DNA from: a virus
IMG/VR virus record: IMGVR_UViG_3300036766_000876
Coordinates: 30,300 to 94,299 of that record
Reading direction: 5' to 3' (one strand)
DNA: 64,000 bases
Positions within the stretch are counted from its first letter, which is position 1, and the number at the start of each line of letters is the position of its first letter. Shown piece by piece: positions 15,312 to 29,799 of the stretch. The notes below the pieces were generated by a model. That model was not told where the DNA came from, did no database searches, and was given only the letters and a program-made list of their open reading frames with translations. A program made the position numbers and the translations under genes.

Positions 15312-16762
15312 GGCGCCCCCAGTGGCAGCGCCCGCTGTTGGCTGTCCGTAGGAGCGGAGGGCACCAGGCTGACGACGGACACCTGGAACTTCTCCCGCTG
15401 GTAGGCGAGCCGGCGAGCCTTGGCGTGGCGCTCCAGCCAGGCCTCCCCCTCGTCCGCCACGTCCCACACCTCGAAGGTGTCCTTGCCGTCGGAGCGCCGC
15501 ATGCCGCGGCCGATCCGCTGGAGGGCCGCGATGACGCTCTTCCCGCCCGAGGCAACAACAACGGAGCGGAGCTCAGGGATGTCCACACCCTCCTGGAAGA
15601 TGACGCTGCTCACCAGCACCTCGGTGTCTCCGCGCAGCAGCCGGCGCACAGCGTCCTTCCGGGCCTGGAGGCTGGCGTCCCCCCAGATGAAGTCGCTGCG
15701 GAGGCTCCTGGCCTTGAGGGCCCTGTCGAACGCCTTGCCATGGAGAATCTCCTTCACGAAGACGAGGCATGGCTTCTCCGCCCGCGCCACGGCTGCCAGC
15801 AGCGCCCGGTTCCGCTGGAGGCTCCGCACCACGCCCTCGTCGTACACCTTGTTCCACTTCCAGCGCCGGATGAGCCCGTGTTGGTCCACCTGGCGGAACT
15901 CCTGCTTCACCTTCACCATCTTGATGAGGGGCTTCGCCAGGTAGCCTGCCTTGATGAGGCTGTCCGCGCGGTGCTCGTAGATGACGGGCCCAAGGCTCGC
16001 CACGGCGAACACCCCGCGCTTGTCCTCCCTGTCGAGCGGCGTGGCGCTGATGCCCAGGCGGAGGCGCGCGTTGGGCAGCGCCATCGACACCTCGTAGTAG
16101 CTAGCCGCCGGCAACGTGTGGGCCTCGTCCACGATGAGGCCCGTCCACGCCTTGAAGGACGCCAGGTGCTTCCCCTTCTTCAGTGCGGAGGAGAGGCTCT
16201 GGAAGGTGGCACAGGTGAAGTGCGCCTCCTCGTTCCAGGCCCCCTCCCCGATGCGCCCGGCCTTGTTGCCGGTGAGGGCCTCGTACCGCTCCGCCGCTTG
16301 CTCCATCAGGGTGGCCCTGTGGGCGAGGAAGAGCCAGCGCACCGTCGGGAAGCGCTGCGCGATGGCAACGGCCACGTTCGTCTTCCCGCCGCCAGTGGCA
16401 ATCTGGATGATGCCGCGCTCCAACCGCACGGCCACCGTCTCCGCGTCGAGCTGGTAGCCACGCGCCGTCGAGCCGTCGGCCGTCAGTGGCGACGGGATGG
16501 CCACTGGGCCAGGGCCCCGCCCGTCGATGACTTGCGCCTGGATGCCGCACGCCCTGGCGCTCTCCATCACGCCGGGGAGGAAGCCGGCCGGGAAGGTGCT
16601 CTCCAACAGGTCGTAGAAGCGGACCCGGTCCACCTCCCCCTTGGCGAAGAGGCCTCGCTTGTCGCTGAAGGTGAGCCCGCTGTCCTTGCTCCGCAGCCAC
16701 TCCACCTCCTCGTCGGAGGCGCGCGTCACCTTCACGTTCAGGTTGCCCTTGGTCAGCCACAT
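15308..16762 (-). CDS. superfamily 2 helicase (UvsW-like)
   Basis: ATGGGKT, DEAH, SAT, EGVDIP, QRIGRGMR. Confidence 0.9.
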   Translation of the reverse strand: MWLTKGNLNVKVTRASDEEVEWLRSKDSGLTFSDKRGLFAKGEVDRVRFYDLLESTFPAGFLPGVMESARACGIQAQVIDGRGPGPVAIPSPLTADGSTARGYQLDAETVAVRLERGIIQIATGGGKTNVAVAIAQRFPTVRWLFLAHRATLMEQAAERYEALTGNKAGRIGEGAWNEEAHFTCATFQSLSSALKKGKHLASFKAWTGLIVDEAHTLPAASYYEVSMALPNARLRLGISATPLDREDKRGVFAVASLGPVIYEHRADSLIKAGYLAKPLIKMVKVKQEFRQVDQHGLIRRWKWNKVYDEGVVRSLQRNRALLAAVARAEKPCLVFVKEILHGKAFDRALKARSLRSDFIWGDASLQARKDAVRRLLRGDTEVLVSSVIFQEGVDIPELRSVVVASGGKSVIAALQRIGRGMRRSDGKDTFEVWDVADEGEAWLERHAKARRLAYQREKFQVSVVSLVPSAPTDSQQRALPLGAP

Positions 16763-16774
16763 GACAGCACCCCT

Positions 16775-16800
16775 CTTGCCCCCAGCGTTGCCCCTTTACC
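16775..16800 (-). promoter_or_regulatory. putative phage promoter GGTAAA-N13-GGGCAAG (copy 3)
   Basis: Motif ends 12 nt before the helicase ATG. Confidence 0.65.
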
Positions 16801-16999
16801 GCTTCCATCCATCCGGCCGCCGCCCGTCGAGCCGTACCGGCTTGGCGATCGGCCTCTGCCACACCTCCCTCGCCAGCGCCTTCTTGAGGTACCAGATGGA
16901 GTCCTGGAGCTCGTCGCGCCCAGCCAGTCTCCTGGCAGCGTCCTCTGCGGCCTTCCGCTGGAGCACCTCCTTGCTGTACCCAAGGAGGGCCCGCTTCAC
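16796..16999 (-). CDS. small hypothetical protein
   Basis: GTG at 16999 overlaps the HTH gene stop. Confidence 0.5.
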   Translation of the reverse strand: MKRALLGYSKEVLQRKAAEDAARRLAGRDELQDSIWYLKKALAREVWQRPIAKPVRLDGRRPDGWKR

Positions 17000-17220
17000 G
17001 CCTGGCTGCCCATCATTCGGGCCGCCTCCGGGCTGGTCTGCTTCAGGTAGGCGACGACGCTCCGCCACTCAACCCAGTGGGCGGCACCGAGGCGCTCCCC
17101 ATGGACGGCACCAGCCTTAATCCAGTTGTAGATGGTCGGGAGGGTGAGCCCCAGGCGCGCGGCCACCTCCTTGGCGGGCACGTACCCCTTGGCGCGTAGC
17201 TTGTCCTTGATGTTGAGCAT
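16996..17220 (-). CDS. MerR/excisionase-type HTH DNA-binding protein
   Basis: AKEVAARLGLTLPTIYNWIKAG. Confidence 0.8.
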   Translation of the reverse strand: MLNIKDKLRAKGYVPAKEVAARLGLTLPTIYNWIKAGAVHGERLGAAHWVEWRSVVAYLKQTSPEAARMMGSQA

Positions 17221-17891
17221 CAGCTTGCCTCCTTGCGCTTCGTGTCTTCCCCGAGGAGCACCATCAGCCCCGCGGCCATGTCTCCGCCCTTGCCCGCCGC
17301 CCTGCGCAGGCCCTTCTTGGCGCGCAGGAAGTCCGCCCGCGCGGTGAACTCCAGCTCCAGGAGGAATGGCTTCGTTGGCGCGTCCTCCGCTTGGTAGTCC
17401 TCGGCGGAGGGCACGGCCATGTCCGGCGAGAGAGCGGCATCGACGTCCTGGCTGACCGCCCCCATCAGGTCCCTCACCTCGTCCTCGTTGAAGCCCGTCA
17501 CGGTGAGCTGCTCCGTGCTCCAGCCGGCCTCAGCGAGCTCCTTGAGGATGCTCCCCACCATCGTCAAGTCCGGCTCCCCGCGGAGGTTGTTCATCCCCAC
17601 GCGGAGGGCCCGCTCCTCGTCCTCCGTCCCACTGGCCACGACGCAGGGCACCTCCCCCATGCCCAGCTTCCGCGCGGCCAGGAGGCGGTGGTGCCCGTCC
17701 ACCACGGAGAACAGAGTCTCCCCGTGGCGCTCCGCGCCCTTCAGCGGGCGCACCAGCAACGGCTGGAGGAAGCCGAACCGCTGGATGGCCAGGACGAGCA
17801 GGTCGAACTTCTCCGTGCTCATCTGGTTGGGGTTGTCCTGCGCCGGCTGGAGGAGCTCCACCCGGATGTTCCTGCTGACGACGTTGCTCAT
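17220..17891 (-). CDS. ParB/Srx-like domain protein
   Basis: NPNQM, IQRFGFLQPLLV, VVDGHHRLLAA, NNLRG. Confidence 0.85.
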   Translation of the reverse strand: MSNVVSRNIRVELLQPAQDNPNQMSTEKFDLLVLAIQRFGFLQPLLVRPLKGAERHGETLFSVVDGHHRLLAARKLGMGEVPCVVASGTEDEERALRVGMNNLRGEPDLTMVGSILKELAEAGWSTEQLTVTGFNEDEVRDLMGAVSQDVDAALSPDMAVPSAEDYQAEDAPTKPFLLELEFTARADFLRAKKGLRRAAGKGGDMAAGLMVLLGEDTKRKEAS

Positions 17892-18436
17892 CGTATCTCC
17901 TCGTACAGCGCTTGCGCCTCGCTGCTGCGCCGGGCTCGTCGGGTCATCTCCTTGCGGGCCCGGTACACCTCTGCCACGGGCACCGCCGCCTGGCGAGCGA
18001 GCTCGCTGGAGGTCACCAACCCCAGGGCCGCCGCCAGGCCCAGCTTCCCCTCTGTCGGGTCGAGCGGCCGCAGCACGTCGTAGACACGCTCCGCGAGCTG
18101 TCTGTCCTCCGCGAGGGAGGCCGGCGAGGGAGCGGTGGCGGCGAGTGTGTACAGCGGGTCTTCTCCGAGCGCTGTTGGGCAGGCGCGCTCCAACCCGTGC
18201 TGGGCCCTGTTGCAGACCCTGTCATCTCGGATTTCCCACCAGTGGCGCTGGACGCCCTTCAGGACGGCTCTGTAGCAGTAGGTCTTGAAGGGCCCCTTGT
18301 CCGGGTCGTACGTCTGACGTGCATCGAGGACGACGAGGACGGCCTGTTGGAGTAGGTCCTGCGCCACGTACCGAGCGATGGGCCTGCGCCGAAGGAAGTA
18401 CTGCGTCGCTGCCTGGGCAATCTCCATGTCTTCCAT
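17888..18436 (-). CDS. phage sigma70-family sigma factor
   Basis: Region 2-like QDLLQQAVLVVLDARQTYDPDKGPFKTYCY; region 4-like HTH TSSELARQAAVPVAEVYR. Confidence 0.75.
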   Translation of the reverse strand: MEDMEIAQAATQYFLRRRPIARYVAQDLLQQAVLVVLDARQTYDPDKGPFKTYCYRAVLKGVQRHWWEIRDDRVCNRAQHGLERACPTALGEDPLYTLAATAPSPASLAEDRQLAERVYDVLRPLDPTEGKLGLAAALGLVTSSELARQAAVPVAEVYRARKEMTRRARRSSEAQALYEEIR

Positions 18437-18486
18437 TTTTGTTTTCCCTTCCCCTTTGTTTTCTTACACGATTTTCGGAGCACAGG

Positions 18487-19047
18487 CTACGGCGTTCCAG
18501 GGCCTCGCTGGAGCAGGGGGGAGCCGGTGAGGCTTGCCCCGGCCAACAGCGCCTTCCGGCGCGTGAGGCTCTTAGACGCCTCGCGAATCCGAGCCACGAC
18601 GACACGGTCGTCCCGCCTGTCAGAAAGGAGCACGCTCTCGATGGCGAGCAACGCCCAGAGCGGCGTCCAGGCCTCGTTGGGTACGTGGCCCCAACGGATT
18701 GGCGGCCTCTGGAGCGGCGCCTTGGCCTCTGCGATGCGGGCGAGCTTCCACCCATCGCCTACCTGACCCCAACCGCGACGCTTCATCTTCAGGCGCCACC
18801 TGGCAGTCTGCGCCTCCGGCGAAGTCCGCCGCCCCTCCCGGGTGTCAGAGCCGATGTTGAGCTTGGGCTTGGCGATGTTGGGGTACTCCTTGTCCATCAG
18901 GGCGAGGAGGCGCCTGGCCTGGAGGCGCACCTCATGCCGGGCGTTCCCCCTGGCGATGCGCCCCTGCTCCTTGTCGAGCCTCCCCAGGTTCACCGCCATG
19001 GCGCGGACCAGCCCCCGGAACTGTGGGTCGTACGATGCCAACCTCAT
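18487..19047 (-). CDS. basic hypothetical protein
   Basis: ATG at 19047 with GAGGAG RBS. Confidence 0.65.
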   Translation of the reverse strand: MRLASYDPQFRGLVRAMAVNLGRLDKEQGRIARGNARHEVRLQARRLLALMDKEYPNIAKPKLNIGSDTREGRRTSPEAQTARWRLKMKRRGWGQVGDGWKLARIAEAKAPLQRPPIRWGHVPNEAWTPLWALLAIESVLLSDRRDDRVVVARIREASKSLTRRKALLAGASLTGSPLLQRGPGTP

Positions 19048-19061
19048 GGTGCTTCTCCTCT

Positions 19062-19126
19062 CGTTGGGAGCTGAAGCGCTCCAGCAGGTGCCCCGGGAAC
19101 CGCCCGGGGCACCCATGCAGGGCTCA
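19062..19126 (-). ncRNA. repeated structured intergenic element, copy A
   Basis: UGAGC-CCU-GCAUG-[11 bp hairpin]-UGCU-GGAGC GCUUCA GCUCC-CAACG, then RBS. Confidence 0.6.
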
Positions 19127-19540
19127 GACCTTCCGCTTGTACTTGTCGCTCCACCGCTCCAGCTTCTCGATGGAGCCCTTCACCGCCTCCGAAAGCTGGG
19201 CGTCATCCCAGTCCTCGTAGTGCTTCCGCCCGCACGCCCCGCACGCGCTCTCCTTGACGTTGAGGTGCGGCACGAGCACCTTGAGCTCCGCCACTGCTCG
19301 ACCCAGGAGCTTCGTGATGACGTTCCTGCGGGCGACGGCAGCCTCCGAGTTGGACTGCGCCGGGAGGACCTCCATCACGTCCTCCTCATCGAGGTGCGTC
19401 AGGTCGCAGGCTCCGGTGGGCCAGGTTCCATCTGGCTCCGGGAGCTCCGCCCACCAGCAATTGCTGCCAGGAGGGGAGACGCGCCCCTTGAGGCGCGCGT
19501 GCTCGCCAGACTTCAGCCGGACGACGTCGCCGGCCTTCAC
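19124..19540 (-). CDS. hypothetical protein
   Basis: 138 aa, MKAGDVVRLKSG start, CGAC motif. Confidence 0.65.
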   Translation of the reverse strand: MKAGDVVRLKSGEHARLKGRVSPPGSNCWWAELPEPDGTWPTGACDLTHLDEEDVMEVLPAQSNSEAAVARRNVITKLLGRAVAELKVLVPHLNVKESACGACGRKHYEDWDDAQLSEAVKGSIEKLERWSDKYKRKV

Positions 19541-20439
19541 GGCGCCTCCTCTCGCGCCATGGCGATGAGGGCCGCCGCCGCCAAGTTCGCCTGGAGCTGC
19601 TCCAAGCGGGTACGCACCTCCTCCAGCTTCACCCCGAGGAGCCGCTCGTACACGCCCAGCTTCTCGGTGGCATCCTCGCAGCGGCCCACGCGCGTCTTGA
19701 TGGCGCGTGTGCCCATGCCGTCCGCCGTCTGCGCGGCAGCAGCCAGCTCAGCCTCCATGGAGCCGCTGAACTGGTCCGCCTCCCGGCGGAGCGAGTCGAG
19801 GATGGCGTCCACGGCCTCACTCGACTGGAGCGCTGGAATCTCCGCGATGAAGGTGGCGGAGGCAGCGCGCAGGGAGGCAACAACCTTCCGCCAGATGGGG
19901 AGCGTCTGGCGCGGGATGAAGTACACCCCGCCCGTGTCGCGGAGGGGCACCGCCTGGACGTGCTTCACCATCTGGCAGAGCCACTCAGCGGTGTCGTACG
20001 CCTCCAGCCGGCGCATGTTGGCCCGGAAGGCTGCGTGAATCTGGTCTGACACGAGCGACGTCGCCCCGGAGTGCGACATGTCGAGGTAGCAGCCATCGGG
20101 GTGGACGTCGGACTTCACCAGCCGGACCTGGAGGATGACTTGGTACTGGAGCGGCGCGCTGGCGTCGTCCTCCGCAGAGTGCTCGGAGACGAGCGCGTAC
20201 CCCTTGCCCGGGAGGGCGCGCATCAGGACCCGCTTGTCCACTTGGTCCTGCATCGCCCGCCGGAGGGCCACCTCGGGGGAGGGCAGGTCCGGGAGGAGCT
20301 TCTCGTCCATGCCCTGCGCCACGAAGGCTGCGCGGAGAGCATCGAAGTTGGTTTCCCCAGACAACCTCCAGAGGACGATTGCCCCGGCTGCGTCTCGGCT
20401 CACGTCGCTGATTGCCATCACGTCTGCGATTGCGTTCAT
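19537..20439 (-). CDS. conserved-looking helical protein next to the MoxR-vWA pair (DUF3150/DUF6744-like)
   Basis: 300 aa with AVPLRDTGGVYFIP motif; family name recalled, not verified. Confidence 0.55.
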   Translation of the reverse strand: MNAIADVMAISDVSRDAAGAIVLWRLSGETNFDALRAAFVAQGMDEKLLPDLPSPEVALRRAMQDQVDKRVLMRALPGKGYALVSEHSAEDDASAPLQYQVILQVRLVKSDVHPDGCYLDMSHSGATSLVSDQIHAAFRANMRRLEAYDTAEWLCQMVKHVQAVPLRDTGGVYFIPRQTLPIWRKVVASLRAASATFIAEIPALQSSEAVDAILDSLRREADQFSGSMEAELAAAAQTADGMGTRAIKTRVGRCEDATEKLGVYERLLGVKLEEVRTRLEQLQANLAAAALIAMAREEAP

Positions 20440-20455
20440 TGTGTAGCTCCTTCCT

Positions 20456-20524
20456 CGTTGGGGACTTGAGCGTCCCAGCAGGGGTCCCGAGCAGGCTGCC
20501 TCGGTCCCCCCATGCGTCGCTCAA
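20456..20524 (-). ncRNA. repeated structured intergenic element, copy B
   Basis: UUGAGC-GAC-GCAUG-[hairpin]-UGCU-GGGAC GCUCAA GUCCC-CAACG, then RBS. Confidence 0.6.
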
Positions 20525-21897
20525 CCTCCTGAAGCGCTCTTCAACACGACGACCTTCCCCCACTTCGCGGGGGCCTCGTTGGCGCCGGCACCACACACGA
20601 GCCAGATGGTGTTCATCCGCATTGGCTCCGGCCCAGGGTCCCCGATGTGCCCGTCCGTGCAGATGACGAGCACCTCCGGGCGCCGGGCCGCCTTGCAGGC
20701 AGCGTCGATGGCGGGCTTCATGTCCGTCCCGCCTCCGCCCTTCATGGCGGCCGCTGCCTCCTTCACATTGCGGATCCTCACCGCCGCGTGGACGTCAGCG
20801 TCGCAGGCGTAGAAGGCCACCTCCGCGCCAACGGCCGCCAGGATGCCCTTCACTTCCTGGAGCCCCTCCTTGATGGAGTCGTCCCCCATGGAGCCAGAGG
20901 TGTCCTGGATGACGGCCACGGCCGGGATGGGCATGCGCAGCGCCGGGAACACCGGCTTGCCGCTCCCGTACCCGATGGCTCCCTGCCGCCGCGACGGCCT
21001 GTCGTAGCGGTAGTCACCGGCACCAGGGCGGTAGGCGATGGCGTTGCGCACGACGCGCGCCAACTCCTGCTGCCAGGGTACCTGCGGTGGCCCCAGGACT
21101 TCCTCCGCCCAGCGCTGGAGGCCCGCTGGGACGGAGCCCCGGCCCTTGCTGGCAGTGTGCTTGCGGACGGCCTCAGCGACGGCGCGCTGAACCCGCTTCT
21201 GCTCCGCCGAGCTCTTCCCCAGCTCAGCCGGGACGCTGTCCTCCAGCTCCCCAGCCTTGTTGCCTGCCCCGGAACCACACCCTGCGCAGCCTCCGTGAGG
21301 CACTACAACGTCCCCCTCACCGGGGGCACCCTTCCCCTTGCCGCTCTGCGGCTTGCCGTCTCCGGGCTGCCTCTGCGCCATCCCGGCCTTGCCCTGGGGC
21401 GGAGCCTTCCGGCGCAGCGCCGCGTAGTACTCCTCTGCCAGGCGCCCCTCCGGTTGGCCGAAGTCCCCTGGGAGCACCTGGTAGTGAATCGACTGCCCAG
21501 CCAGGTCCTCGTGGATGAACTTCCCGTCCACCCTCGGGTACTTCGCGCCGGCCGCCACGAGGTCGTCGTCAATCTCGGCGTCAGCAGCGTAGTTCCAGAG
21601 CTTGGCGAGGTCCGGCTGCGCGGTGGCGCCGACCTGCTCTGCCCGCTGGAGGTGCGTCCGTACCCAGTGGCAGGCCTCGTGGAGGAGCGTCCAAGCAGCC
21701 TCCTCGACGCTCCACACCGCACTCAGCGCCGGGTCCCAGAGGAGCACCCCGCGCTTGGTGACGGCCATCGTCTTCAGCCCAGGCGTTTGGTGGGGCACGA
21801 GCCCCATCACCGCCGCGCTGAAGTACGGCATGAGCTGCGTGGCCTTGATGCGCGCCGCCGCGAACCAGCTCGCAGGGTCCTTCAGTGCATTTGCCAT
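20521..21897 (-). CDS. metallopeptidase-like plus vWA domain protein (DUF2201-like)
   Basis: HEACH (HExxH), WNYAADAEI, MIDAS DTSGS, GGGGTD, TDG. Confidence 0.85.
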   Translation of the reverse strand: MANALKDPASWFAAARIKATQLMPYFSAAVMGLVPHQTPGLKTMAVTKRGVLLWDPALSAVWSVEEAAWTLLHEACHWVRTHLQRAEQVGATAQPDLAKLWNYAADAEIDDDLVAAGAKYPRVDGKFIHEDLAGQSIHYQVLPGDFGQPEGRLAEEYYAALRRKAPPQGKAGMAQRQPGDGKPQSGKGKGAPGEGDVVVPHGGCAGCGSGAGNKAGELEDSVPAELGKSSAEQKRVQRAVAEAVRKHTASKGRGSVPAGLQRWAEEVLGPPQVPWQQELARVVRNAIAYRPGAGDYRYDRPSRRQGAIGYGSGKPVFPALRMPIPAVAVIQDTSGSMGDDSIKEGLQEVKGILAAVGAEVAFYACDADVHAAVRIRNVKEAAAAMKGGGGTDMKPAIDAACKAARRPEVLVICTDGHIGDPGPEPMRMNTIWLVCGAGANEAPAKWGKVVVLKSASGG

Positions 21898-21929
21898 GGT
21901 TGGTTCTCCTTGTTGGGGGTTGGTTGGGG

Positions 21930-23084
21930 CTACTCGCTCCTGGCCACGAAGCCCGCCGCCGCCAGGATGGGCTGAATCTTGGCGAGGCTGGCGTACGCGC
22001 TCTTCCCGCTGGTGAAGCCCTTCTTGGCGAGCACCATGGCGGCATCCACGACGATGTCTGCGTTCTTGTCGATGACAGTGCCGATGATTTCCCACAGCTT
22101 CTCAGCCCGCTCCTTACGCTTGGGAGCCTTGTCCGGAGCGATGAGCGCCGCGCAGGAGGCGAGCACCGACACCGTGCGGTCCAGCCGGCGGACGTCGTGC
22201 TTGAACTCCGTGTTGCCGTCGAGCACGTCGGCCGGATCCGGCAGGTCAACCTCCTTGATGTAGGAGAGGAACTCCGCCGCCGCCCCGACGCCGATGAACG
22301 CCGTCAGGAGCTCCTCCTTGTCGGCCTGGTCGATGCGATGCAGCTCCGCGCCCGCCCACGCGCGGCACCCGAGCTCCCAGGTGCGGTGCGACGGCCACGC
22401 GCGCCCCGCCTCCGGGCTGCCGGACTTGGGCATCATGTGGAGCATCGACGGCTTGGCCGTGATGAAGCCCGAGACGAGCCCCTTGGCGCGGGCGAACGGC
22501 TCTGCCCACTCCTTCTCGACACGGGCCTCCAGGTCCGCCGCCTTCACCTTGATGGCGCCGGCCTCACCGCCGCCCAGCAGCCAGGCGCTCCACTGGCGCG
22601 CGTCCGGCTTCTCCCAGGCGAGGTGCCCGAAGCGGTTTGCCAGCGGGGGAGCGAGGTCCCAGCCGCCGGCCGCGTCACCCACCTTGTTCTGCGCCGCAAG
22701 GATGCGGACGGTGTGGGGCATCTTGTACTCCCCCACGGCGCCGTCGGTCGCCAGCCGGAGCATCGCGGCCTGCATGGCGGGAACGTTGGTGTTCAGCTCG
22801 TCGAGGAAGACCACCCCGCGGAGCGCCTTGGCCATGTCCAGCGCCCACGCCGGGGGCACCAGGCGGAAGCGGTCGTCCTCCAGGCGGGCCAGGCCGCCAA
22901 CGTCCGTGGGCTCCCGGATGCTTCCGAGGATGACCTCGACCTTGAGCCCGTAGTCGAGCTCCACCTGCTCGACGATGTTCGTCTTCGCCGTCCCGGGCTC
23001 CCCCTCGAAGATGACCGGGAGGCCCCAGCGGCCCTTGCTGCCGGGGGTGAAGAGGACCACCTTCATGATTGCCTTGATGTCCAC
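21930..23084 (-). CDS. MoxR-like AAA+ ATPase
   Basis: GEPGTAKT, EPTDVGG, FLDE, AAQN, PLANRF. Confidence 0.88.
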   Translation of the reverse strand: MDIKAIMKVVLFTPGSKGRWGLPVIFEGEPGTAKTNIVEQVELDYGLKVEVILGSIREPTDVGGLARLEDDRFRLVPPAWALDMAKALRGVVFLDELNTNVPAMQAAMLRLATDGAVGEYKMPHTVRILAAQNKVGDAAGGWDLAPPLANRFGHLAWEKPDARQWSAWLLGGGEAGAIKVKAADLEARVEKEWAEPFARAKGLVSGFITAKPSMLHMMPKSGSPEAGRAWPSHRTWELGCRAWAGAELHRIDQADKEELLTAFIGVGAAAEFLSYIKEVDLPDPADVLDGNTEFKHDVRRLDRTVSVLASCAALIAPDKAPKRKERAEKLWEIIGTVIDKNADIVVDAAMVLAKKGFTSGKSAYASLAKIQPILAAAGFVARSE

Positions 23085-23107
23085 GGTGTCCGACCTTTCG
23101 TGCTGCG

Positions 23108-23173
23108 CGTTGGGAGCATGAGCGCTCCAGCAGGACGCCCAGAGCCTTCCTGGGCGCCCCATGCAGGGCTCAC
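23108..23173 (-). ncRNA. repeated structured intergenic element, copy C
   Basis: GUGAGC-CCU-GCAUG-[10 bp hairpin]-UGCU-GGAGC GCUCAU GCUCC-CAACG. Confidence 0.6.
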
Positions 23174-23412
23174 TCGAAGAACTGCGGGTTCTTGGTCTGG
23201 CGCTTCACCTCCGCCACCACGCCGTGGAGGAGGTCGTCGATGGCGGCCACCGTCACCGTCTCGGCCACCTGATGCCGCACGATGGCGAGGATGCGCGCCT
23301 CCACGATGGCGATGCGCATCGTGCTGGTGAGGTACTTGAACGCCCGCCCACGCTCGAAGTCCACTTCGAGGACTTCCTTGGCGAAGGTCCGCTTCTGGCT
23401 GGCGTTCCACAT
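23170..23412 (-). CDS. early hypothetical protein
   Basis: ATG at 23412 with AGGAGG RBS. Confidence 0.65.
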   Translation of the reverse strand: MWNASQKRTFAKEVLEVDFERGRAFKYLTSTMRIAIVEARILAIVRHQVAETVTVAAIDDLLHGVVAEVKRQTKNPQFFE

Positions 23413-23903
23413 CAGAGCACCTCCTTTTCGTTCTGCACGGAGCTCTCCTCTTCGCCCATGCAGATTTCGCAGTGCTCCCGCTCTTCTTCTGGGTGCTCGC
23501 CGCAGCACTCAGCGACGTGGCAGCCATCGGCTTCTTCCCCCAACTCCACCAGCCGTGCCTCCGCTTCCTGCACTGAGAACATGCCGTTCTCAGTGCATCC
23601 TTCATCGTTGAAAATCCCAAATTCCGGCATGTGGTTCCTTTCCAGTTGTGGGGGTGTGGTGGCCTTGAGGCGCGCCCGGCTGAACGCAGCGAGCCACGTA
23701 GGGCCTGTCCCGAGGCAGCTCACGGAGGACAGCTCCGCGCGCCGCAGCCAGATGGTGCGCGTCCCACCACTGGCCTCCGCGAAGGCTTGCGGGCCGAACT
23801 CCCGGACCGCCAGGAGGGTGGCCTGCTTCGCCGTGAGGCGCTCTCGGCGGATTGGGCCGCCGAGCCGCGTGATGGCATCGGCCGCTTCCAGGGGCAGCTT
23901 CAT
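23412..23903 (-). CDS. early hypothetical protein with possible internal start at 23630
   Basis: ATGA-coupled start at 23903; second in-frame ATG with GAAAGGAA RBS precedes an acidic, Cys-rich half. Confidence 0.55.
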   Translation of the reverse strand: MKLPLEAADAITRLGGPIRRERLTAKQATLLAVREFGPQAFAEASGGTRTIWLRRAELSSVSCLGTGPTWLAAFSRARLKATTPPQLERNHMPEFGIFNDEGCTENGMFSVQEAEARLVELGEEADGCHVAECCGEHPEEEREHCEICMGEEESSVQNEKEVL

Positions 23904-24118
23904 GTGCACACCCGGATGCAGACGTAGCAGTTGGTGGCGGGGAAGCGCCGCTTGGCCTCCGCCCGGGCCGCCTTCTTGGCCTCGGTGTACGTGCAGGACG
24001 GAGTGACCCACCAGGGCTCCTTGTGGTCGTCGTCTGGGAAGGTGAACGCCCAGCTCCCGTAGCCGCGAGGATTGCCGTGGCTGAGGCGGTACTCGCTGGT
24101 GTCGAAGTCGATGGTCAT
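23900..24118 (-). CDS. early hypothetical protein
   Basis: MTIDFDTSEYRLSHGNPRGYGSWAF; GGAGG RBS; ATGA overlap. Confidence 0.65.
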   Translation of the reverse strand: MTIDFDTSEYRLSHGNPRGYGSWAFTFPDDDHKEPWWVTPSCTYTEAKKAARAEAKRRFPATNCYVCIRVCT

Positions 24119-24345
24119 GGCCGCCTCCCAACCAGACGCAGGACACGTTCGAGCTCGGCAACCAGCCGAGCCGCGTTGGTCTGCATGTCGCGGAGGTTTG
24201 CTACACAGTCCTCCGCCGTCTCGCAGGACTCGGCGTCGCTGCGATTCATCTCCAGCTCTTGCGTGCAGGCCTCCAGGTTGCTGTCGCCAAGCTCCTCCAA
24301 CATCTCCTCCAACGACGTGCTGAAGCGCTTCCCGAGCGTGCTCAT
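24115..24345 (-). CDS. early hypothetical protein
   Basis: 76 aa, part of an ATGA overlap chain. Confidence 0.6.
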   Translation of the reverse strand: MSTLGKRFSTSLEEMLEELGDSNLEACTQELEMNRSDAESCETAEDCVANLRDMQTNAARLVAELERVLRLVGRRP

Positions 24346-24554
24346 CGCAGCACCAGGACAGACTTGCGGCCGGGGCCGTCGTCACCGACCACCAGCGCGC
24401 AGTGGTAGTCGGACTGCACCACCGTCTCCTTCTCGCCACTGGTGACCTCGCGGACGATGGTGCTCTTCCAGTAGTCCCCGGATGGGACGGCGAAGTGGAC
24501 CTTGGTGCCCGGGGGGAACGCCGACAGCAGCTCCATCAGCTCTTTGGCAGTCAT
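24342..24554 (-). CDS. early hypothetical protein
   Basis: 70 aa, MTAKELMELLSAFP start, ATGA overlap. Confidence 0.65.
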   Translation of the reverse strand: MTAKELMELLSAFPPGTKVHFAVPSGDYWKSTIVREVTSGEKETVVQSDYHCALVVGDDGPGRKSVLVLR

Positions 24555-24808
24555 GAGCGCACCCCAAGCACTGGCAGCAGGGCTGCGATGATTTTGCGAG
24601 CCTCATCGACCATGCAGTCGCCTCCGGGGCACGGAGCCCCGGGAGCAAGCGGCTTGGACTTGCTGCTCCAACTGTGGTTGTGGTCCCCGGTCAGCTCGTA
24701 GGCGTGCAGGGCTTCGGGCAGTGTCCGAATTGCACGCAGCACATCTGCGAGTGCCTCTCGGGCAGCTCGCTTGCGCTCGTCTGCCAAAATGCTTCCCATG
24801 CTTGTCAT
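24551..24808 (-). CDS. early hypothetical protein
   Basis: 85 aa, ATGA overlap. Confidence 0.55.
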   Translation of the reverse strand: MTSMGSILADERKRAAREALADVLRAIRTLPEALHAYELTGDHNHSWSSKSKPLAPGAPCPGGDCMVDEARKIIAALLPVLGVRS

Positions 24809-25206
24809 GACTGGCTCCCTTTCAACGAGTTGGTGAGGCGGCGAATCTCCGCCTTGGTCACAGCAATCGACTCGAACACTGCCGTCAGCTCCTCATCGCG
24901 CTCCGCCCGCTCTGCGCGGGACGAAACCTTCCTGCCAAGGAGCGCCGCCCTGTCAGCCTCGAACTCGGCCAGCGCGCCCCGCTCGGTGTCCAAGAGGCTG
25001 TTGATGGCCGTGATGCGGAGGACCGCTGCCTGCGCAGCAGCCGCCCGCTGGGCATCGACCTTGGCGCGGTACTCCGGGCTGGCCCGGTAGGCGCGCTCCT
25101 CTGCTGCGAACCGTGCGTCAACGACGAGGAGGTCCAGGAGGGCCTTCGCCAGGCCCTCCGGCATGGCGTTGATGGCCACGTAGGCCTTCTTGTGGCTGGC
25201 GCTCAT
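24805..25206 (-). CDS. early coiled-coil hypothetical protein
   Basis: ATG at 25206, ATGA overlap. Confidence 0.6.
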   Translation of the reverse strand: MSASHKKAYVAINAMPEGLAKALLDLLVVDARFAAEERAYRASPEYRAKVDAQRAAAAQAAVLRITAINSLLDTERGALAEFEADRAALLGRKVSSRAERAERDEELTAVFESIAVTKAEIRRLTNSLKGSQS

Positions 25207-25472
25207 CGCGCACGCTCCAGCGCATCGACCAAGCGGTAGTCGCCAGCGGCGCCCATACGTGCAGCTTGGTCGTGCTGCGCGTCCAAGGCCGAATCCACCG
25301 CGCACCCTGCGCAGGAGTCGATGTACCCATCGAGCCCTGGAACGCTCCAGGGCCGCGACCCGTAGGCGCCGCACCGGGGGCAGTCACCGTCAATCGGCCC
25401 CAGGCACTTGATCCTGGCCAATTCGTGCAAGGACAGCGTGCTCCACGGGGTTGCCGTGCTGTGTGCATCCAT
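25203..25472 (-). CDS. early hypothetical protein with CxxC...CxxC
   Basis: ATG at 25472 with AAGGAG RBS; CPRC and CAGC. Confidence 0.6.
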   Translation of the reverse strand: MDAHSTATPWSTLSLHELARIKCLGPIDGDCPRCGAYGSRPWSVPGLDGYIDSCAGCAVDSALDAQHDQAARMGAAGDYRLVDALERAR

Positions 25473-25488
25473 TTTGTTGCTCCTTGTT

Positions 25489-25556
25489 CGTTGGGTGCTC
25501 TTTTGCACCGCTGAGCAGCGGAGGCTGACTGCGCCTCCGCCGGCACGCGCTGCTGT
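25489..25556 (-). ncRNA. structured intergenic element, partial copy D
   Basis: Hairpin GCGGAGGC/GCCUCCGC, then UGCU, then GGUGC AAAAGA GCACC-CAACG and RBS. Confidence 0.45.
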
Positions 25557-25561
25557 TCGAG

Positions 25562-25627
25562 CTACTCGACTCGGCCACACGTCGCCGCGATGAGGGCGAC
25601 GCACACCAGCACCGCCAGGGCGACCAT
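25562..25627 (-). CDS. 21 aa hydrophobic peptide
   Basis: MVALAVLVCVALIAATCGRVE with GGAGAGG RBS; below the ORF-track cutoff. Confidence 0.4.
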   Translation of the reverse strand: MVALAVLVCVALIAATCGRVE

Positions 25628-25628
25628 T

Positions 25629-25892
25629 TCAGTCCTCTCCGCAGCAGGCCTTCGCGTCACGCAGCGTGTCGAAGTCCTGGAGGGTGGGCCGCCCGGCGAC
25701 GGGGTGCCGTGCCGTGTCCCAGAGCACCCACTCCCGCTTCCAACAGCCGTTGCGGCTGCTGGCCATCATCCGGCTGTGGATGACGTAGCGCCCATCCGCG
25801 CTGGTGTACTCGACCTCGTTCCAGCCGCCTCGTGTTGCTGTCCGCTTCCAGGGTCCAAGGCTCATGGCGCCTCCTTCGTTGGTCGGCTTCAT
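25629..25892 (-). CDS. early hypothetical protein
   Basis: 87 aa; alternative start at 25865 with AGGAGG RBS. Confidence 0.6.
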   Translation of the reverse strand: MKPTNEGGAMSLGPWKRTATRGGWNEVEYTSADGRYVIHSRMMASSRNGCWKREWVLWDTARHPVAGRPTLQDFDTLRDAKACCGED

Positions 25893-25894
25893 GT

Positions 25895-26113
25895 TCAGCC
25901 CTCCGCCAGGCTGCCATCGGGCTGGACGATTCCGTAGACGCGGCCAACAGCGACCTCACCGCGGTAGAAAATTGCGGCGACACCACCGTTGACCGTCACG
26001 TTCACCTGGACCCTGTCGTACTCCGGAGCCACCGGGGACCCGATGGTCGCCAGCCACAGCGCGGCCGCCTTCGCCGCCAGCCTCTGAGTCTCAAACAGCT
26101 TGTCGTTGCTCAT
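25895..26113 (-). CDS. first gene of early operon, hypothetical
   Basis: 72 aa, GAAAGGAA RBS. Confidence 0.65.
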   Translation of the reverse strand: MSNDKLFETQRLAAKAAALWLATIGSPVAPEYDRVQVNVTVNGGVAAIFYRGEVAVGRVYGIVQPDGSLAEG

Positions 26114-26124
26114 GTGCTTCCTTT

Positions 26125-26555
26125 CGTTGGGTGCTGGATCGCACCACTCAGCCCGCGACCTCGTCGCGCTGCTGGGTGGAACGGGCGAGCTCTCGCTCGC
26201 CGCTCCGCTCTCTCGCCGGTCTTCCCTCCGTGCCCATGCACGCCCGCTGCAACCAACCCGCCCTCTGGGAGCCCTCCCGATCGTCGCCTCTTCGGCGCCT
26301 CGCGGTTGTTGGGACTCTTCCCAGTTTTACCCGGCTTCTATGCGGAGACTTCGGTGCCGAGCTGGACGCGGGTAAAGCCCCCGTCCGGCTTGTCCGCCTC
26401 CCCGGATGCCTAGTGGGCCGGGAGATGCGGGCGCTCAGTGTTGTCGGCTCCGGGTCGCTTTGGGGGGAGGTCGCGTCCGGGGGGAGGTGGCCGTTTCCGG
26501 CCTGCCTCTACCGCCCTTCCGCTTCCCGCCGCCCGCCGCCGCCCGCCACCAACAA
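26125..26555 (-). ncRNA. long structured non-coding leader ending in element copy E
   Basis: No credible ORF. GNRA hairpins GGCCG-GAAA-CGGCC (26489-26502) and GGCGAGC-GAGA-GCUCGCC (26184-26201). Ends in GGUGC GAUCCA GCACC-CAACG. Confidence 0.45.
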
Positions 26556-26562
26556 CAAAGGA

Positions 26563-26612
26563 AGTATCCCTCCCAAAAAGAAAAAAAGCAAACAAACTCA
26601 AAAAATAAAATA
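26563..26612 (-). promoter_or_regulatory. sigma70-type early promoter with UP element
   Basis: TTGCTT (26586-26591), 17 bp spacer, GATACT (26563-26568), with an A/T tract upstream; a markedly AT-rich stretch in this GC-rich window. Confidence 0.7.
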
Positions 26613-26676
26613 GGGCCAAGAACGCAGGGTCTTAGGAGCCCATGTGGAGCCGTCGAGCTCACTGTCGTGTTGGGCG

Positions 26677-26702
26677 GGAAAAAGCCCACTGGCCGGGGCA
26701 AG
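26677..26702 (+). promoter_or_regulatory. putative phage promoter GGAAAA-N13-GGGCAAG (copy 4)
   Basis: On the plus strand, 8 nt before the ATG at 26711. Confidence 0.65.
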
Positions 26703-26710
26703 GTACTGTC

Positions 26711-27172
26711 ATGCCTCTAAAACGCTCTCCGCAGCAGATAGGACGACTCTCCCGTCGTAAGGGTAAGGCCCATGAGCAAGCTGTCGCCCGGGCCCTCCGC
26801 GCTGTCTTCGGCGCAGGGGTGAAGCGCGGCTGGCAGGCGCGCGAGGGGGATGACGCTCCTGACATCGACGGCACCCCCTACTGGGTGGAGGCGAAGTGCG
26901 GCCGCCGGGTGAACTACCAGGCCGCCATGCAGCAGGTGGTGGACGCCAAGGAGAGCGCCCTCCGGAAGAAGGATCCGCGCGCCACACTCCCGCCGCTCGT
27001 CGTCGGGCGGGACGACAACGGGGAGGCCTTCGCGCTGCTCCGCTTCGAGGACTTCGTCAAGCTCCTGCGGACAAATGGCGAAGTGCCCGCAGCCGGCACA
27101 CCCGGAGTAGCTACTACCCCTGTGGCGCGGCCGGTCGAGGAGCTCACCCTGGCGCAGCCGCCAGGCCGGTGA
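26711..27172 (+). CDS. PD-(D/E)xK nuclease, Holliday junction resolvase-like
   Basis: SRRKGKAHEQAVA, PDI, WVEAK motifs. Confidence 0.75.
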   Translation: MPLKRSPQQIGRLSRRKGKAHEQAVARALRAVFGAGVKRGWQAREGDDAPDIDGTPYWVEAKCGRRVNYQAAMQQVVDAKESALRKKDPRATLPPLVVGRDDNGEAFALLRFEDFVKLLRTNGEVPAAGTPGVATTPVARPVEELTLAQPPGR

Positions 27173-27507
27173 GCCCGCCCGTCGTCTCCCCTTCAGACGA
27201 CCCGCGCTGGGCGCTCTCCACGTCGCCCATCAGGAGCGACCGTTGGGAGCGCCGCCTGGCGGTGGGGGACCTCTCCTGCCACCTCCGCTGCGAGCGCGTC
27301 TTCAAGATGAAGGGGCGCTGGGGAGCGCGTGTCGGAAGGGGCAAGGACGTCTGGATGTGGGAGCTCATCCGCACCGCCTGGAGCATCTCCGCCGGCAGTG
27401 CGGTGTCCCTCGTCCAAGCGATGGAAGACGCCAACAGGGCCTTCGACGCAGCGGAGGCAGCCTTCCGGTTCAGTGGGCGGACGCCGGACTACCTCGACCA
27501 GGACTAG
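27169..27507 (+). CDS. hypothetical protein
   Basis: GTGA-coupled to the resolvase-like gene; converges on the spanin stop. Confidence 0.55.
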   Translation: MSPPVVSPSDDPRWALSTSPIRSDRWERRLAVGDLSCHLRCERVFKMKGRWGARVGRGKDVWMWELIRTAWSISAGSAVSLVQAMEDANRAFDAAEAAFRFSGRTPDYLDQD

Positions 27508-27839
27508 CTCCCGGCGTCGAGGCTCCCAGCGTCCCGGGGGCCGCAGCGAATCCAGGCCTCGTCCTGCCAGCGCCGGGAGGCCTCCAGGGAGCCCGCGAGG
27601 CGCGCCCCAGGGCCAGGCAGCAGGCAGCCGGCGAAAACAGCAGGGCAGCCCGTCTCCGGCCCCTCAACGGGCACGGGGAGGATGGCCGGCGGGGGCTCCT
27701 TCAGGCACTCCCGGGCGACCTCGACCCGGACCGGCTCAGGGCACGGTCGGGCCGCCGAGCAGCCGGCGGAGGCGATCGCGCACAGCAGCAGGGTCCGCAC
27801 AGGCAGCGACGTCCTTCTCCAGAATCTCAATCTCGGCAT
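27504..27839 (-). CDS. o-spanin (Rz1-like lipoprotein)
   Basis: Lipobox-like ASAGC, Pro-rich, overlaps the i-spanin in another frame. Confidence 0.7.
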   Translation of the reverse strand: MPRLRFWRRTSLPVRTLLLCAIASAGCSAARPCPEPVRVEVARECLKEPPPAILPVPVEGPETGCPAVFAGCLLPGPGARLAGSLEASRRWQDEAWIRCGPRDAGSLDAGS

Positions 27840-28056
27840 GAAGCCTCCTCACGACGTCTTCCAGGCGAGCGCTGTCGTCCTTCCGGGCCGCCTCGGAGAG
27901 CTGAAGCCCTGTGGCATTGGCGTCCGCGTCGCGCCTGGCCTGGACCGTCTCGCCCTTGGATGTGGCGAGCTCCGCCTGGATGCCGCGGAGGCGCACCCAC
28001 ATGACGAGGGTCGCCACTGCGCCGGCCAAGCCGGTCGCGAGAAGGGCCCAGCTCAA
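27736..28056 (-). CDS. i-spanin (Rz-like)
   Basis: N-terminal TM (WALLATGLAGAVATLVMWV) followed by coiled coil; TTG start overlaps the upstream stop. Confidence 0.7.
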   Translation of the reverse strand: MSWALLATGLAGAVATLVMWVRLRGIQAELATSKGETVQARRDADANATGLQLSEAARKDDSARLEDVVRRLHAEIEILEKDVAACADPAAVRDRLRRLLGGPTVP

Positions 28057-28652
28057 GGCGCCGCGGGGGCCGGAGCGCTTGGGGCCGCGGGCGGGGACTT
28101 CCGCGCCTGGAACCACTCCAGGATGTCCTTGCCCATCTCCCACAGGGCCGCGCCCGTCACCGCCACGGTCAGGATGGGCTTCACCAGCGTCCAGTTGACC
28201 GGCTCCCCGGCCATCAGGGCAGTACCGCAGCCGCCGGCCACGGCCGTCGCGATGTTGAGGAGCCAGCCGCCCGGCTTGGTGTCGAAGACGAACCAGAAGG
28301 GCTTGTCCCACAGGGAAGCGTCCGGGATGAGCTCGTGCAGCTTCTTCCCGTAGGTGCGGAGCAGGCTCACCACCAGGACGAGCAGGGCAGAGGCCGCCGC
28401 CCACCAGTTGCCGCTCTTGACGCTGGTGAAGACGAGCTTGACGAAGCTGACCGGGTTCTCCAGGGAGGGGGCTGCTGCGGCCGCGCCAGGGACGGCCAGC
28501 GGGTCCGCCGGCAGGACGACGACGGTGCCTGGCTCCGCCAGGGACAGGTCCCCAGGGCTGGCCGTCGGGGCGGGGGCCGGCATCGGCTGGGCGAACGCGA
28601 AGGGCGAGAGGCCCGCCACGAGGACTGCTGCGAGGATGAGGGCGGTCTTCAT
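28053..28652 (-). CDS. holin-like membrane protein
   Basis: Signal-like N-terminus plus three hydrophobic segments, between endolysin and spanins. Confidence 0.6.
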   Translation of the reverse strand: MKTALILAAVLVAGLSPFAFAQPMPAPAPTASPGDLSLAEPGTVVVLPADPLAVPGAAAAAPSLENPVSFVKLVFTSVKSGNWWAAASALLVLVVSLLRTYGKKLHELIPDASLWDKPFWFVFDTKPGGWLLNIATAVAGGCGTALMAGEPVNWTLVKPILTVAVTGAALWEMGKDILEWFQARKSPPAAPSAPAPAAP

Positions 28653-28663
28653 GGGGCCGGAAG

Positions 28664-29419
28664 CTAGGGGCCCCCGAAGGCACCGTCAAGGATGGCAGGG
28701 AGGAGCTGGTCCAGCCAGCGCGAGCCTGGGTCCTCCTTGCGGCCCTGGTCGAACATGACGTGCCCGTACCTGCACACGTCGCGAATCAGGCCGTACTTGA
28801 GGTGGAGGGCCTGGACGAGGCGCCCCGCGGCCTGCTGCTGGTCAGCCGGGAAGTCGTCGAAGAAGGCATCCCCCACCTTGATGGCCCTGGAGGCGTCGAG
28901 CTCCAGGCGAGGGTCCGGCAGGCGCAGGGCCACGACAGCGGTGGGGTTGCTGTAGAACGGCCAGCAGTAGAACTTCCCTGCCACCTGGACGAGGCGCCCC
29001 GCGTTCTCCAGCTCCACGCCCACCGTCACCTTGTTGACGTTCGCCACCAGGCGGCCGCCTGCCCACGCGGTGGCGTCCCACTTCCCGTCCGGGCCGACTG
29101 TCGGGGGAGCCCCGATGCGGCCAGGTCGTCCGACGTGCCAGGAGCCCTTGGTGAAGGGGATGGACTGGAAGACGCGCCCGTCGCGGGCGATGAGGACGTG
29201 CCAGCTCGCTGCCCGGTCCTTCGCCTTGTCGTACTCCCGAATCTCATTCACCGTCGCCACGGCGAACTCCGGGGAGCGACAGCGACCACCCGTCCAGTGC
29301 CAGACGATGCCCGCCGGCCCCTGCCCGTCGAGCTGGGTGACGCGGGTGGAGGGGACCTTGATGACGGGCGGGAGGCCCTCCGCCGCTGCCTGTAGCCAGC
29401 CTGCGGAATCGACCATCAC
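28664..29419 (-). CDS. endolysin, N-acetylmuramoyl-L-alanine amidase (Amidase_2)
   Basis: IVWHWTG, ASWHVLI, SWHVG, GVELEN, GH...RKEDPG. Confidence 0.88.
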   Translation of the reverse strand: MMVDSAGWLQAAAEGLPPVIKVPSTRVTQLDGQGPAGIVWHWTGGRCRSPEFAVATVNEIREYDKAKDRAASWHVLIARDGRVFQSIPFTKGSWHVGRPGRIGAPPTVGPDGKWDATAWAGGRLVANVNKVTVGVELENAGRLVQVAGKFYCWPFYSNPTAVVALRLPDPRLELDASRAIKVGDAFFDDFPADQQQAAGRLVQALHLKYGLIRDVCRYGHVMFDQGRKEDPGSRWLDQLLPAILDGAFGGP

Positions 29420-29799
29420 GGGAGGGTGGCCGCCGCCTCAAGCCGGAACGGGGAGAGGGGCACCACCGCGTTCCGCACCCCGCCCACTTCGTGCCAGACG
29501 TCGTAGACGTACTGGCCGGCCGCGAAGCGCTTGGTGTCCGCCGGAAGGACCGCAAAGGAAGCCGCCCCAGCGGCCAGCGTGGCCGTCTTGACGAACACCT
29601 TTTGGGCGTCCTCCGGCTTCTTCTTCAGCGTCCAGGTGAGGGTGCCGGCCGGGGCATTCTGCCCGCTGGGGAGCACCACCCTGAGCCGGAGCGTGACGTT
29701 GCTCCCAATGGGGAAGGAGAGCGCCAGGCGCGGGTTCTCCGGCACCCCGCTGGAGCGGGGACCACCGTCCTCCAGTACTCCAACGAGGTCGATGACCAT
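29416..29799 (-). CDS. small beta-sandwich virion protein (BppU-like)
   Basis: LPADTK...GQYVYDVW pattern. Confidence 0.5.
   Translation of the reverse strand: MVIDLVGVLEDGGPRSSGVPENPRLALSFPIGSNVTLRLRVVLPSGQNAPAGTLTWTLKKKPEDAQKVFVKTATLAAGAASFAVLPADTKRFAAGQYVYDVWHEVGGVRNAVVPLSPFRLEAAATLP

Follow-up and report, generated by a model that had tools for sequence, protein, structure and literature searches.

The DNA analysed here (hereafter the window) is a 64,000-nucleotide stretch comprising bases 30300-94299 of the 94,299-bp IMG/VR virus record IMGVR_UViG_3300036766_000876, which has a G+C content of 67% and carries nearly all of its genes on the minus strand. Our subject is a repeated RNA element, present in five copies (units A to E) that all lie on the minus strand of one early operon, with none elsewhere in the record; modelled folds suggest that each unit is most likely a bistable intercistronic RNA signal. 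The operon, of ~9 kb and holding all five units, would be driven by a putative early promoter in an AT-rich region (~26555-26600, minus strand) that we read as TTGCTT-N17-GATACT. This region faces a divergent plus-strand gene starting at 26711; it was compared with the related contigs L006, L011 and L012 and is kept in L011, and a simple consensus promoter scan left it unflagged. A leader of ~430 nt is followed by ten small genes (70-163 aa) and one open reading frame (ORF) of 21 codons, then by the genes of a MoxR-like AAA ATPase, a DUF2201 protein (metallopeptidase and VWA), a DUF6744 protein and two proteins of 138 and 186 aa and, further along, by a sigma-70 region 2 gene (17888-18436), ParB and the replication genes. 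Most of these genes overlap as ATGA or GTGA, and the five units occupy the end of the leader and every spacer longer than 70 nt between the promoter and gene 16. Searched against Pfam at E<=0.01, nine of the small early genes returned only one weak, sub-threshold AsnC match (17 bits for a cut-off of 25) and the tenth no match at all, and blastn of the region against GenBank phages gave no match.

Reading of the minus strand confirmed the three full copies that a first-pass annotation had placed at 19062-19126, 20456-20524 and 23108-23173, as well as its two short copies at 25489-25509 and 26125-26145. Unit A (19045-19126 from stop to start) begins with a UGA (19124-19126) and continues with the 5' strand CUGCA of a lower helix termed P0 (19116-19120), an upper hairpin (19087-19113), the linker UGCU (19083-19086), a small hairpin termed P3 (19067-19082), the tail CAACGA (19061-19066), a Shine-Dalgarno (SD) sequence (19055-19060) and the ATG (19045-19047) of the 186-aa gene; its predicted rod has 24 bp. 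Unit B (20437-20523) runs from the UGA of the DUF2201 gene (20521-20523) through the flank GACGCA, an upper hairpin with a tandem G.A internal loop (20481-20511), the linker UGCU, P3 (20461-20476) and CAACGA (20455-20460) to the ATG of the DUF6744 gene (20437-20439), with a predicted rod of 23 bp. In unit C (23082-23172), the UGA (23170-23172), upper hairpin (23133-23159), linker, P3 (23113-23128) and CAACGC (23107-23112) precede the GTG (23082-23084) of the AAA ATPase gene, and the predicted rod reaches 25 bp. Unit D (25469-25564) starts from the UAG of the 21-codon ORF (25562-25564), has a flank containing GCAGC, an upper hairpin (25516-25542), the linker UGCUCAGC, P3 (25494-25509) and CAACGA (25488-25493), and ends at an ATG (25469-25471). 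Unit E (26111-26206), at the end of the leader, carries three hairpins, P1 (GGAGC-GGCGAGC-GAGA-GCUCGCC-C-GUUCC, 26178-26206), P2 (~26147-26177) and P3 (26130-26145), before CAACGA (26124-26129) and an ATG (26111-26113); orthologous P1-P2-P3 units are found in the related contigs L006, L011, L012 and L004. The small stems are those annotated at first pass, namely GGAGC/GCUCC in A and C, GGGAC/GUCCC in B and GGUGC/GCACC in D and E, and the long GC hairpins do differ in sequence from copy to copy.

The units stand out clearly from their genomic background. A 26-nt pattern common to A, B and C (CTGCTGGNNCGCTNNNGNNCCCAACG) has three exact matches in the window, where shuffled sequences lead to an expectation of 0.12 and none of 100 shuffles reaches three, and it has no further match in the 94-kb record. 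A covariance model built on P3 plus tail gives the five copies 38-42 bits, and the next best site of the genome 17 bits. The stop-to-start segments also fold better than shuffled sequences (z of -4.0 for A, -2.7 for B and D, -2.4 for E), copy C being the weaker case (z = -1.3). Two sites lack P3: at 25866-25884 (minus strand), CCAACGA-AGGAGG stands in a 28-nt gap before the ATG at 25865, and L007 keeps CAACGGAGG before its AAA gene. These two sites indicate that the CAACG-SD context is kept even without the hairpin.

Relatives were reached through homologues of the AAA ATPase and through alignment-based scans of viral contigs, an exact-peptide scan of these contigs with the AAA protein having given no match. 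Protein search revealed about 25 close relatives on contigs of 50-104 kb, and five related sequences were compared: the window and L004, L006, L011 and L012 (three or four phages, L011 being a short contig that overlaps no other), with an AAA protein identity of 65% to the relatives. They contain 17 copies of P3, the five of the window included, with the same layout of GGNNC, a loop of 5-6 nt and GNNCC, directly followed by CAA(CGA), an SD and a start codon; the tail is CAACGA in L006, L011 and L012 and CAAGGAG in L004. Full pairing of P3 is possible in 17 of 17 copies, which is partly so by construction because the search was for stems. The middle pair varies widely (AU 8, GC 4, UA 3, GU 1, UG 1) and pairs 4 and 5 show one double change each, so that three of the five pairs display compensatory changes. 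No shuffle reaches the covariation score of P3, slid registers fall to 26-60% paired, and RNAalifold recovers P3 from the eight copies of the single-hairpin type. These counts include paralogous copies within genomes and thus overstate the number of independent events. Among the 17 copies, the GG/CC closing pairs, a loop starting with R, A/C and mostly U, and the CAA after the stem are invariant. A complete relative of 93.8 kb holds exactly five strong P3 copies, all in its early region, and P3 is absent from the more distant relatives L005, L007 and L008. The proposal that the element is a cis-acting structured RNA is thereby borne out in related phages, by conservation with covariation. An Rfam 15 search of the window gave no match at gathering scores and, at E<=5, only two irrelevant weak hits with no ribozyme family or riboswitch, and the relatives gave 0 hits.

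Beyond this clade, the 26-nt pattern had 0 matches in viral contigs and the leader box CGTCAARGGYCGGAAG had 97 stretches but no new relative. A looser pattern (GGNGCNNNNNNGCNCCCAACGA) had 109 stretches, mostly due to chance, among which those of L045 and L059 look real and that of L101 possibly so. In these three contigs, GGNGC-N6-GCNCC-CAACGA-SD-ATG is found at L045:1525, on the minus strand of L059 (4605 in reverse-complement coordinates) and on the minus strand of L101 (145 in reverse-complement coordinates), with AAU-type loops in two of them, as in the relatives, and with none of the early genes of the window. About four such hairpin-CAACGA hits could be due to chance among 113 pattern matches. 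The distribution of the hairpin-CAACGA leader may extend beyond this clade.

Two types of units are found upstream of P3. In single-hairpin units, the stop codon is followed by a flank of ~13 nt, a single long GC hairpin whose sequence is free, a linker of 3-8 nt and P3, with a stop-to-P3 distance of 36-50 nt; eight units are of this type (A, B, C, D, L004:12634, L004:13862, L012:2591 and L012:3892). Three-hairpin units (E, L006:630, L006:1279, L011:706, L012:2089 and L004:8869) display P1, then P2 and P3. The P1 consensus is GGRRC-GGCGAGC...GCUCGCC-C-GUYCC, in which the bulged C is conserved and the lower stem varies on both strands together (GGAGC/GUUCC versus GGGAC/GUCCC); L004:9677 and L011:1909 are also multi-hairpin units, with a first hairpin that departs from this consensus. 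P1 is located at 26178-26206 (minus strand) in the window, L004:8811-8838, L006:1209-1238 and L012:1984-2012, and its 3' arm can also pair with the 5' arm of P3. The predicted folds suggest that three-hairpin units may be chains of alternative pairings.

When a single-hairpin unit is folded on its own, the 5' flank including the stop codon pairs with the linker, the 5' arm of P3 and the P3 loop. In all eight copies, the minimum-energy prediction is one imperfect rod of 20-25 bp, which excludes P3 and is predicted to be 2-12 kcal/mol more stable than the GC hairpin with an enforced P3, all energies being predictions for GC-rich RNA. Read from its base, the rod starts with P0 as the lower helix, continues with a G x G mismatch that never varies, a step of 2 bp and an interruption (either a bulge or a small internal loop), and ends in an upper stem of free sequence. 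In P0, the flank 5'-(G)C-N-G-C-A/G faces linker-G-G-N-G-C: position 1 of P3 pairs with a flank C in 8/8 copies, position 2 (G) is always unpaired opposite a flank G, and position 3 pairs with its flank partner as U:A in five copies, C:G in B and A:U in D and L012:2591. An unedited MAFFT alignment gives UA 5, AU 1 and CG 1 for this last pair, D being shifted by two columns, and CG 8/8 and AU 6, GC 2 for the next P0 pairs. Position 3 of P3 thus has two covarying partners, one in the flank and one within P3. In B and L004:12634, which precede the same gene (DUF6744), position 3 differs in the flank, the 5' arm and the 3' arm of P3 together.

This nested fold also accounts for a complementarity that had been taken at first pass for a pseudoknot between the small loop and the upstream stop codon. 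The pairs proposed then (UUGAGC/GCUCAA in B, GUGAGC/GCUCAU in C, imperfect in A) are real and form the outer part of the rod. An H-type pseudoknot is rejected because pairing of 5-6 loop bases leaves connectors of 0-2 nt, which are too short, because the nested rod, meeting the same complementarity, is more stable, and because the relatives lose the UGAGC/GCUCA pair. The UGAGC motif itself, described as conserved, is confined to this phage, its relatives having CUGCACAG or a UAG stop. Nor is copy D devoid of an upstream partner, as had been thought, since it pairs in another register (GCAGC with the GGUGC arm and GCUC with GAGC). In the relatives, the P3 loop pairs with CUGA, CGAU or bases after UAG; the rod base thus pairs with one to three stop-codon bases in 8/8 single-hairpin copies, although its sequence is not conserved.

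The flank bears on the predicted balance between both folds. In most single-hairpin copies, the native flank suppresses P3 more than shuffled flanks do (0, 31, 17, 68, 6, 1, 30 and 0 of 200 shuffled flanks, per copy, suppress it at or below the native value), and in copy D none of 200 does as well as the native flank. Two of the eight tests carry no information, as P3 is outcompeted there by a downstream pairing whatever the flank. When the 5' part is removed in silico, P3 forms with a probability of at least 0.67 in 15 of the 17 copies. Before the 186-aa gene, in the window (19045-19082, minus strand) and in L004 (13862-13893), the favoured fold pairs the loop and 3' arm of P3 with the SD region, and the P3 probability of A and L004:13862 remains 0.00 even after the simulated cut; this predicted fold may be a gene-specific damping of translation.

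The reading that we tentatively favour, and to which we give slightly less than an even chance, is that the units are cut-and-refold punctuation signals of the kind found in T7 for RNase III. As transcribed, the RNA from the stop codon to the P3 loop would fold into the rod of 20-25 bp, and a double-strand-specific endonuclease, most likely the host RNase III, would cut it near the linker. The upstream mRNA would then retain the GC hairpin at its 3' end, and the freed 3' strand would refold into the 5-bp P3, placed within a few bases of the new 5' end and ahead of the unstructured CAA(CGA) spacer and the SD. In this way, the 9-kb early transcript would be split into stable and translatable blocks of translationally coupled genes. 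What the analysis shows is the pair of competing folds, with its conservation, covariation and placement; cleavage, the nuclease involved and a stabilising action of P3 are inferred. We rank this mechanism first because it uses every part of the element. Substrates of E. coli RNase III typically span two helical turns, which may consist of stacked short helices, and internal loops or bulges limit the enzyme to one strand, leaving a protective 3' hairpin (PMC1540722). The predicted rods of all eight single-hairpin copies reach this length (~two turns, ~20 bp), and the invariant G x G mismatch together with the bulge or 2x2 loop provides an internal interruption between P0 and the upper stem. 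P3 starts 13-17 nt past the apical loop, on the 3' strand of the rod, which is by our own reckoning roughly where an RNase III cut is expected. Equivalent intergenic sites of L005 and L007 hold a plain stem-loop of the UUCG type and, behind it, a sigma-70 promoter cassette that is repeated (CTTGACTCTCTTGTGTTTC...TAGAGT). Be it an RNA unit or a promoter cassette, either would give the next block its own 5' end.

Several observations weigh against a cut-and-refold signal. The features compared above are those of the E. coli enzyme, and the specificity of RNase III may differ in the host of this phage. The cut, the RNA ends and any effects on expression are predictions from folds and placement, and the rod is a thermodynamic prediction in a GC-rich RNA, in which long helices form readily. 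Nor do the eight copies count as independent: A and C are near-identical, and GCUGCACA is common to three relatives. A generic 5' cap needs no invariant GG/CC, no R-M-U loop start and no fixed CAA(CGA), and these features hint at a specific reader. The stop codon is always part of the rod base, which may point to a switch driven by the ribosome rather than to a cut. Finally, A and L004:13862 pair the 3' half of P3 with the SD even once the cut is simulated.

Among known systems, the closest by mechanism would be, by analogy, the RNase III signals of the T7 early polycistronic mRNA, which we take to be R0.3, R0.5, R1, R1.1 and R1.3. Like these, the units lie between cistrons of an early transcript made by the host polymerase, form an irregular hairpin of ~two turns broken by an internal loop or bulge and, if cut, would leave the upstream RNA ending in a hairpin and the downstream RNA starting shortly ahead of its ribosome-binding site. 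Unlike the T7 signals, with which they share no sequence similarity, they are candidate cleavage sites, their rod base takes in the stop codon, their G x G mismatch is invariant, and the 3' strand of their lower helix has a second covarying partner in P3, which would leave a small hairpin and a CAA(CGA) leader. The proposed role of P3 after the cut resembles that of 5'-terminal stem-loop stabilisers, reportedly exemplified by the E. coli ompA leader and by the 5' stabiliser that Bs-RNase III is said to generate in Bacillus phage SP82, where a small hairpin near the mRNA 5' end precedes an open ribosome-binding region; however, P3 would lie at a 5' end only after the putative cut, and GG/CC and CAA(CGA) exceed the generic need. 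By placement, the closest elements are the SAS of Cluster K mycobacteriophages, 13-bp boxes (GGGATAGGAGCCC) that contain the SD and are presumed to function in translation initiation (PMC3203893), a role presumed for the units too. SAS and ESAS are also repeats of a single orientation that occur only in the non-structural half of the genome and precede, by a few bases, the starts of genes from different families. The inverted repeats of ESAS, though, lend no support to pairing at the RNA level, and their authors favoured DNA-binding proteins (PMC3203893). In contrast, the hairpin of our units covaries and sits upstream of a separate SD, as GGNNC-N6-GNNCC-CAACGA and with no 13-bp box. By genomic context, the closest are the PeSL of T4-type phages, which are likewise repeated stem-loop cassettes between small non-essential early genes of a variable region (PMC2839356). 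The units differ from them by the absence of a promoter, a stem-loop without U-tract and a two-state design at the RNA level; no promoter-like site was found by scan in window positions 16000-30000, nor any -10/-35 box by eye in the units. Around the AAA gene, promoter cassettes follow plain stem-loops at L005:9703 and 11347 and at L007:8064 and 9940, a PeSL-like arrangement that replaces the RNA units of the window.

The functions put forward at first pass have fared unequally: a processing site and a coupling of termination to initiation both remain, whereas self-cleavage is left without a ribozyme match and PeSL-like shuffling without a sigma-70 promoter. The coupling could be achieved with no cut at all, if the terminating ribosome melts P0 so that P3 forms and marks the downstream start as active, and downstream translation would thereby depend on upstream translation across a structured spacer of 75-90 nt; we consider this a possible but clearly minor alternative. 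The pairing of the rod base with stop-codon bases in every single-hairpin copy speaks for it, and masking of the first 13 nt lifts the P3 probability from at most 0.45 to 0.89-0.99 in six of the eight copies. In about half of the copies, the 5' arm of P3 is SD-like and its 3' arm anti-SD-like, and in L004:12634 the unpaired probability of the SD goes from 0.30 to 0.90 upon masking. However, predicted SD accessibility shows no consistent change (three copies gain, three lose and two stay level), for which reason SD occlusion was rejected as the output of a switch, and the SD does not follow the stem variants GGUGC, GGGGC and GGGAC. Masking even destroys P3 in three-hairpin units (from 0.95 to 0.00 in L004:8869 and from 0.63 to 0.00 in L006:1279), leader copies have no upstream ORF, and the rod may begin at the stop codon merely because non-coding sequence begins there. 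A broader version, in which a ribosome-sensing bistable switch flips the rod into a P3-CAA(CGA) read by some factor or by the 30S subunit and would serve many uncultured phages as a long-range coupling device, is given the same minor weight. A specific reader is also the core of an operator model, according to which a phage or host RNA-binding protein binds P3 and CAA(CGA) to regulate early-gene translation, as with T4 RegA or the gene 43 operator, and the rod modulates access. The GG/CC pairs, loop positions 1-3 and CAA are invariant throughout the 17 copies, in contrast to the middle of the stem and most of the loop, the motif always lies 3-11 nt from the SD at the head of each block of coupled genes, and the same hairpin-CAACGA-SD-ATG with AAU loops occurs in contigs without these genes (L045 and L059). 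We nevertheless regard this model as unlikely: an RNA-binding protein that could serve as a candidate was not found, the small early genes match nothing in Pfam and lack homologues in the relatives, although these share the motif, and the first loop bases are also explained by rod pairing with the stop-codon region.

Shuffling of genes at the DNA level, through homology patches or hairpin-forming junctions that would act like PeSL without a promoter in the exchange of early cassettes, has one feature of the locus in its favour. The units do bound a region of small genes devoid of homologues (E, D and C, at its borders), and the ten small genes searched between E, D and C have none in the corresponding regions of L004, L006, L011 and L012, whereas the flanking core genes (AAA, DUF2201, DUF6744, the 186-aa gene, sigma and ParB) are syntenic; the relatives are too distant, at 65% AAA identity, to map breakpoints. 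Yet the blocks bounded by units hold three and eight genes rather than single ones, B and A lie between conserved syntenic genes, the repeat identity is short (26 nt with eight free positions), and the covariation of P3 and P0, the single orientation and the fixed SD distance point to selection on the transcript, which makes this explanation improbable. Transcription punctuation, with the GC hairpins as terminators without U-tracts and P3-CAACGA as a nut- or put-like signal of antitermination or re-loading, is quite improbable too. Relatives do place plain hairpins without U-tracts just before promoters (L005:9657), and such hairpins may therefore terminate in this host; besides, a hairpin of 5 bp with a conserved single strand behind it is reminiscent of boxB and boxA as they are ordered in rrn leaders. 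But none of the five units scored as terminator-like, their hairpins being followed by CUGCU or GAU and no U run, antitermination is not linked to a fixed position 3-11 nt before an SD, and an antitermination site can have no effect on a hairpin that lies 5' of it. No gene resembling N or Q was identified, N homologues having been sought via Pfam on the small genes, and the resemblance to a lambdoid nut site is limited to hairpin size, since element order, five copies and an SD-adjacent position do not fit. A self-cleaving ribozyme would suit an intercistronic position, where hammerheads and twisters sometimes occur, but it is very improbable given that no family matched at E<=5, that the conserved single-stranded parts are very short and that covariation supports just two helices, a plain rod and a hairpin of 5 bp, which form no multi-helix junction.

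Other candidates were tried and set aside. For a sigma-54 promoter, the GG-N10-GC spacing fits copy A only, and an extracytoplasmic-function (ECF)-type promoter would put the transcription start inside a gene. An N4-type hairpin promoter was dismissed as there is no giant virion RNA polymerase, the largest ORF having 902 aa in a crude GC3-filtered ORF call. The sequence before P3 in L045 is better read as another hairpin than as a promoter; TTGACC-N18-GACACT in L101 is a plausible promoter but is found in L101 alone and was not relied on. P3 does not qualify as an RNase P minihelix, its tail being CAA and not NCCA. Pairing of CAACGA with 16S rRNA was likewise set aside, as the 3' end of the E. 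coli 16S rRNA is not known to offer a free stretch complementary to it.

To our knowledge, the splitting, stabilising and balancing of long early transcripts is known in detail for a few model phages only (T7, T3, SP82 and lambda), and cut-and-refold units would extend the same logic to an uncultured clade of high-GC phages. Since position 3 of P3 has two covarying partners, the units are suited to experiments on cut-and-refold or ribosome-switch mechanisms. Rfam has no entry for the element, and phage intergenic regions would be better annotated with a model of it. Should P3-CAA(CGA) turn out to work as a portable 5' cap and ribosome-binding leader, it would offer a natural insulator part for operons in GC-rich hosts.

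Several features of the operon deserve mention besides the units. The leader (26125-26560, minus strand) has a length of 300-430 nt among relatives, contains no credible ORF and gave no match in Rfam; its counterparts lie at L011:330-740, L012:1800-2125, L006:400-660 and L004:8200-8410, and blocks common to four relatives are AGAGCCYGA with a hairpin, and GCGUCAAGGGCCGGAAG. This leader is possibly a structured RNA of its own that is released at unit E. The hypervariable accessory region (23170-26113, minus strand) holds the ten small genes, the homologue search having covered these and left out the 21-codon ORF. This ORF (25562-25627, minus strand) encodes a hydrophobic peptide (MVALAVLVCVALIAATCGRVE), its AUG shares its A with the stop of the previous gene (UGAAAUG), and its own stop codon is the anchor of unit D. 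The sigma-70 region 2 protein (182 aa; 17888-18436, minus strand) is encoded directly after the element-bearing part of the operon, behind an A-rich spacer of 50 nt without any hairpin, and is probably the phage's own sigma factor for later genes.

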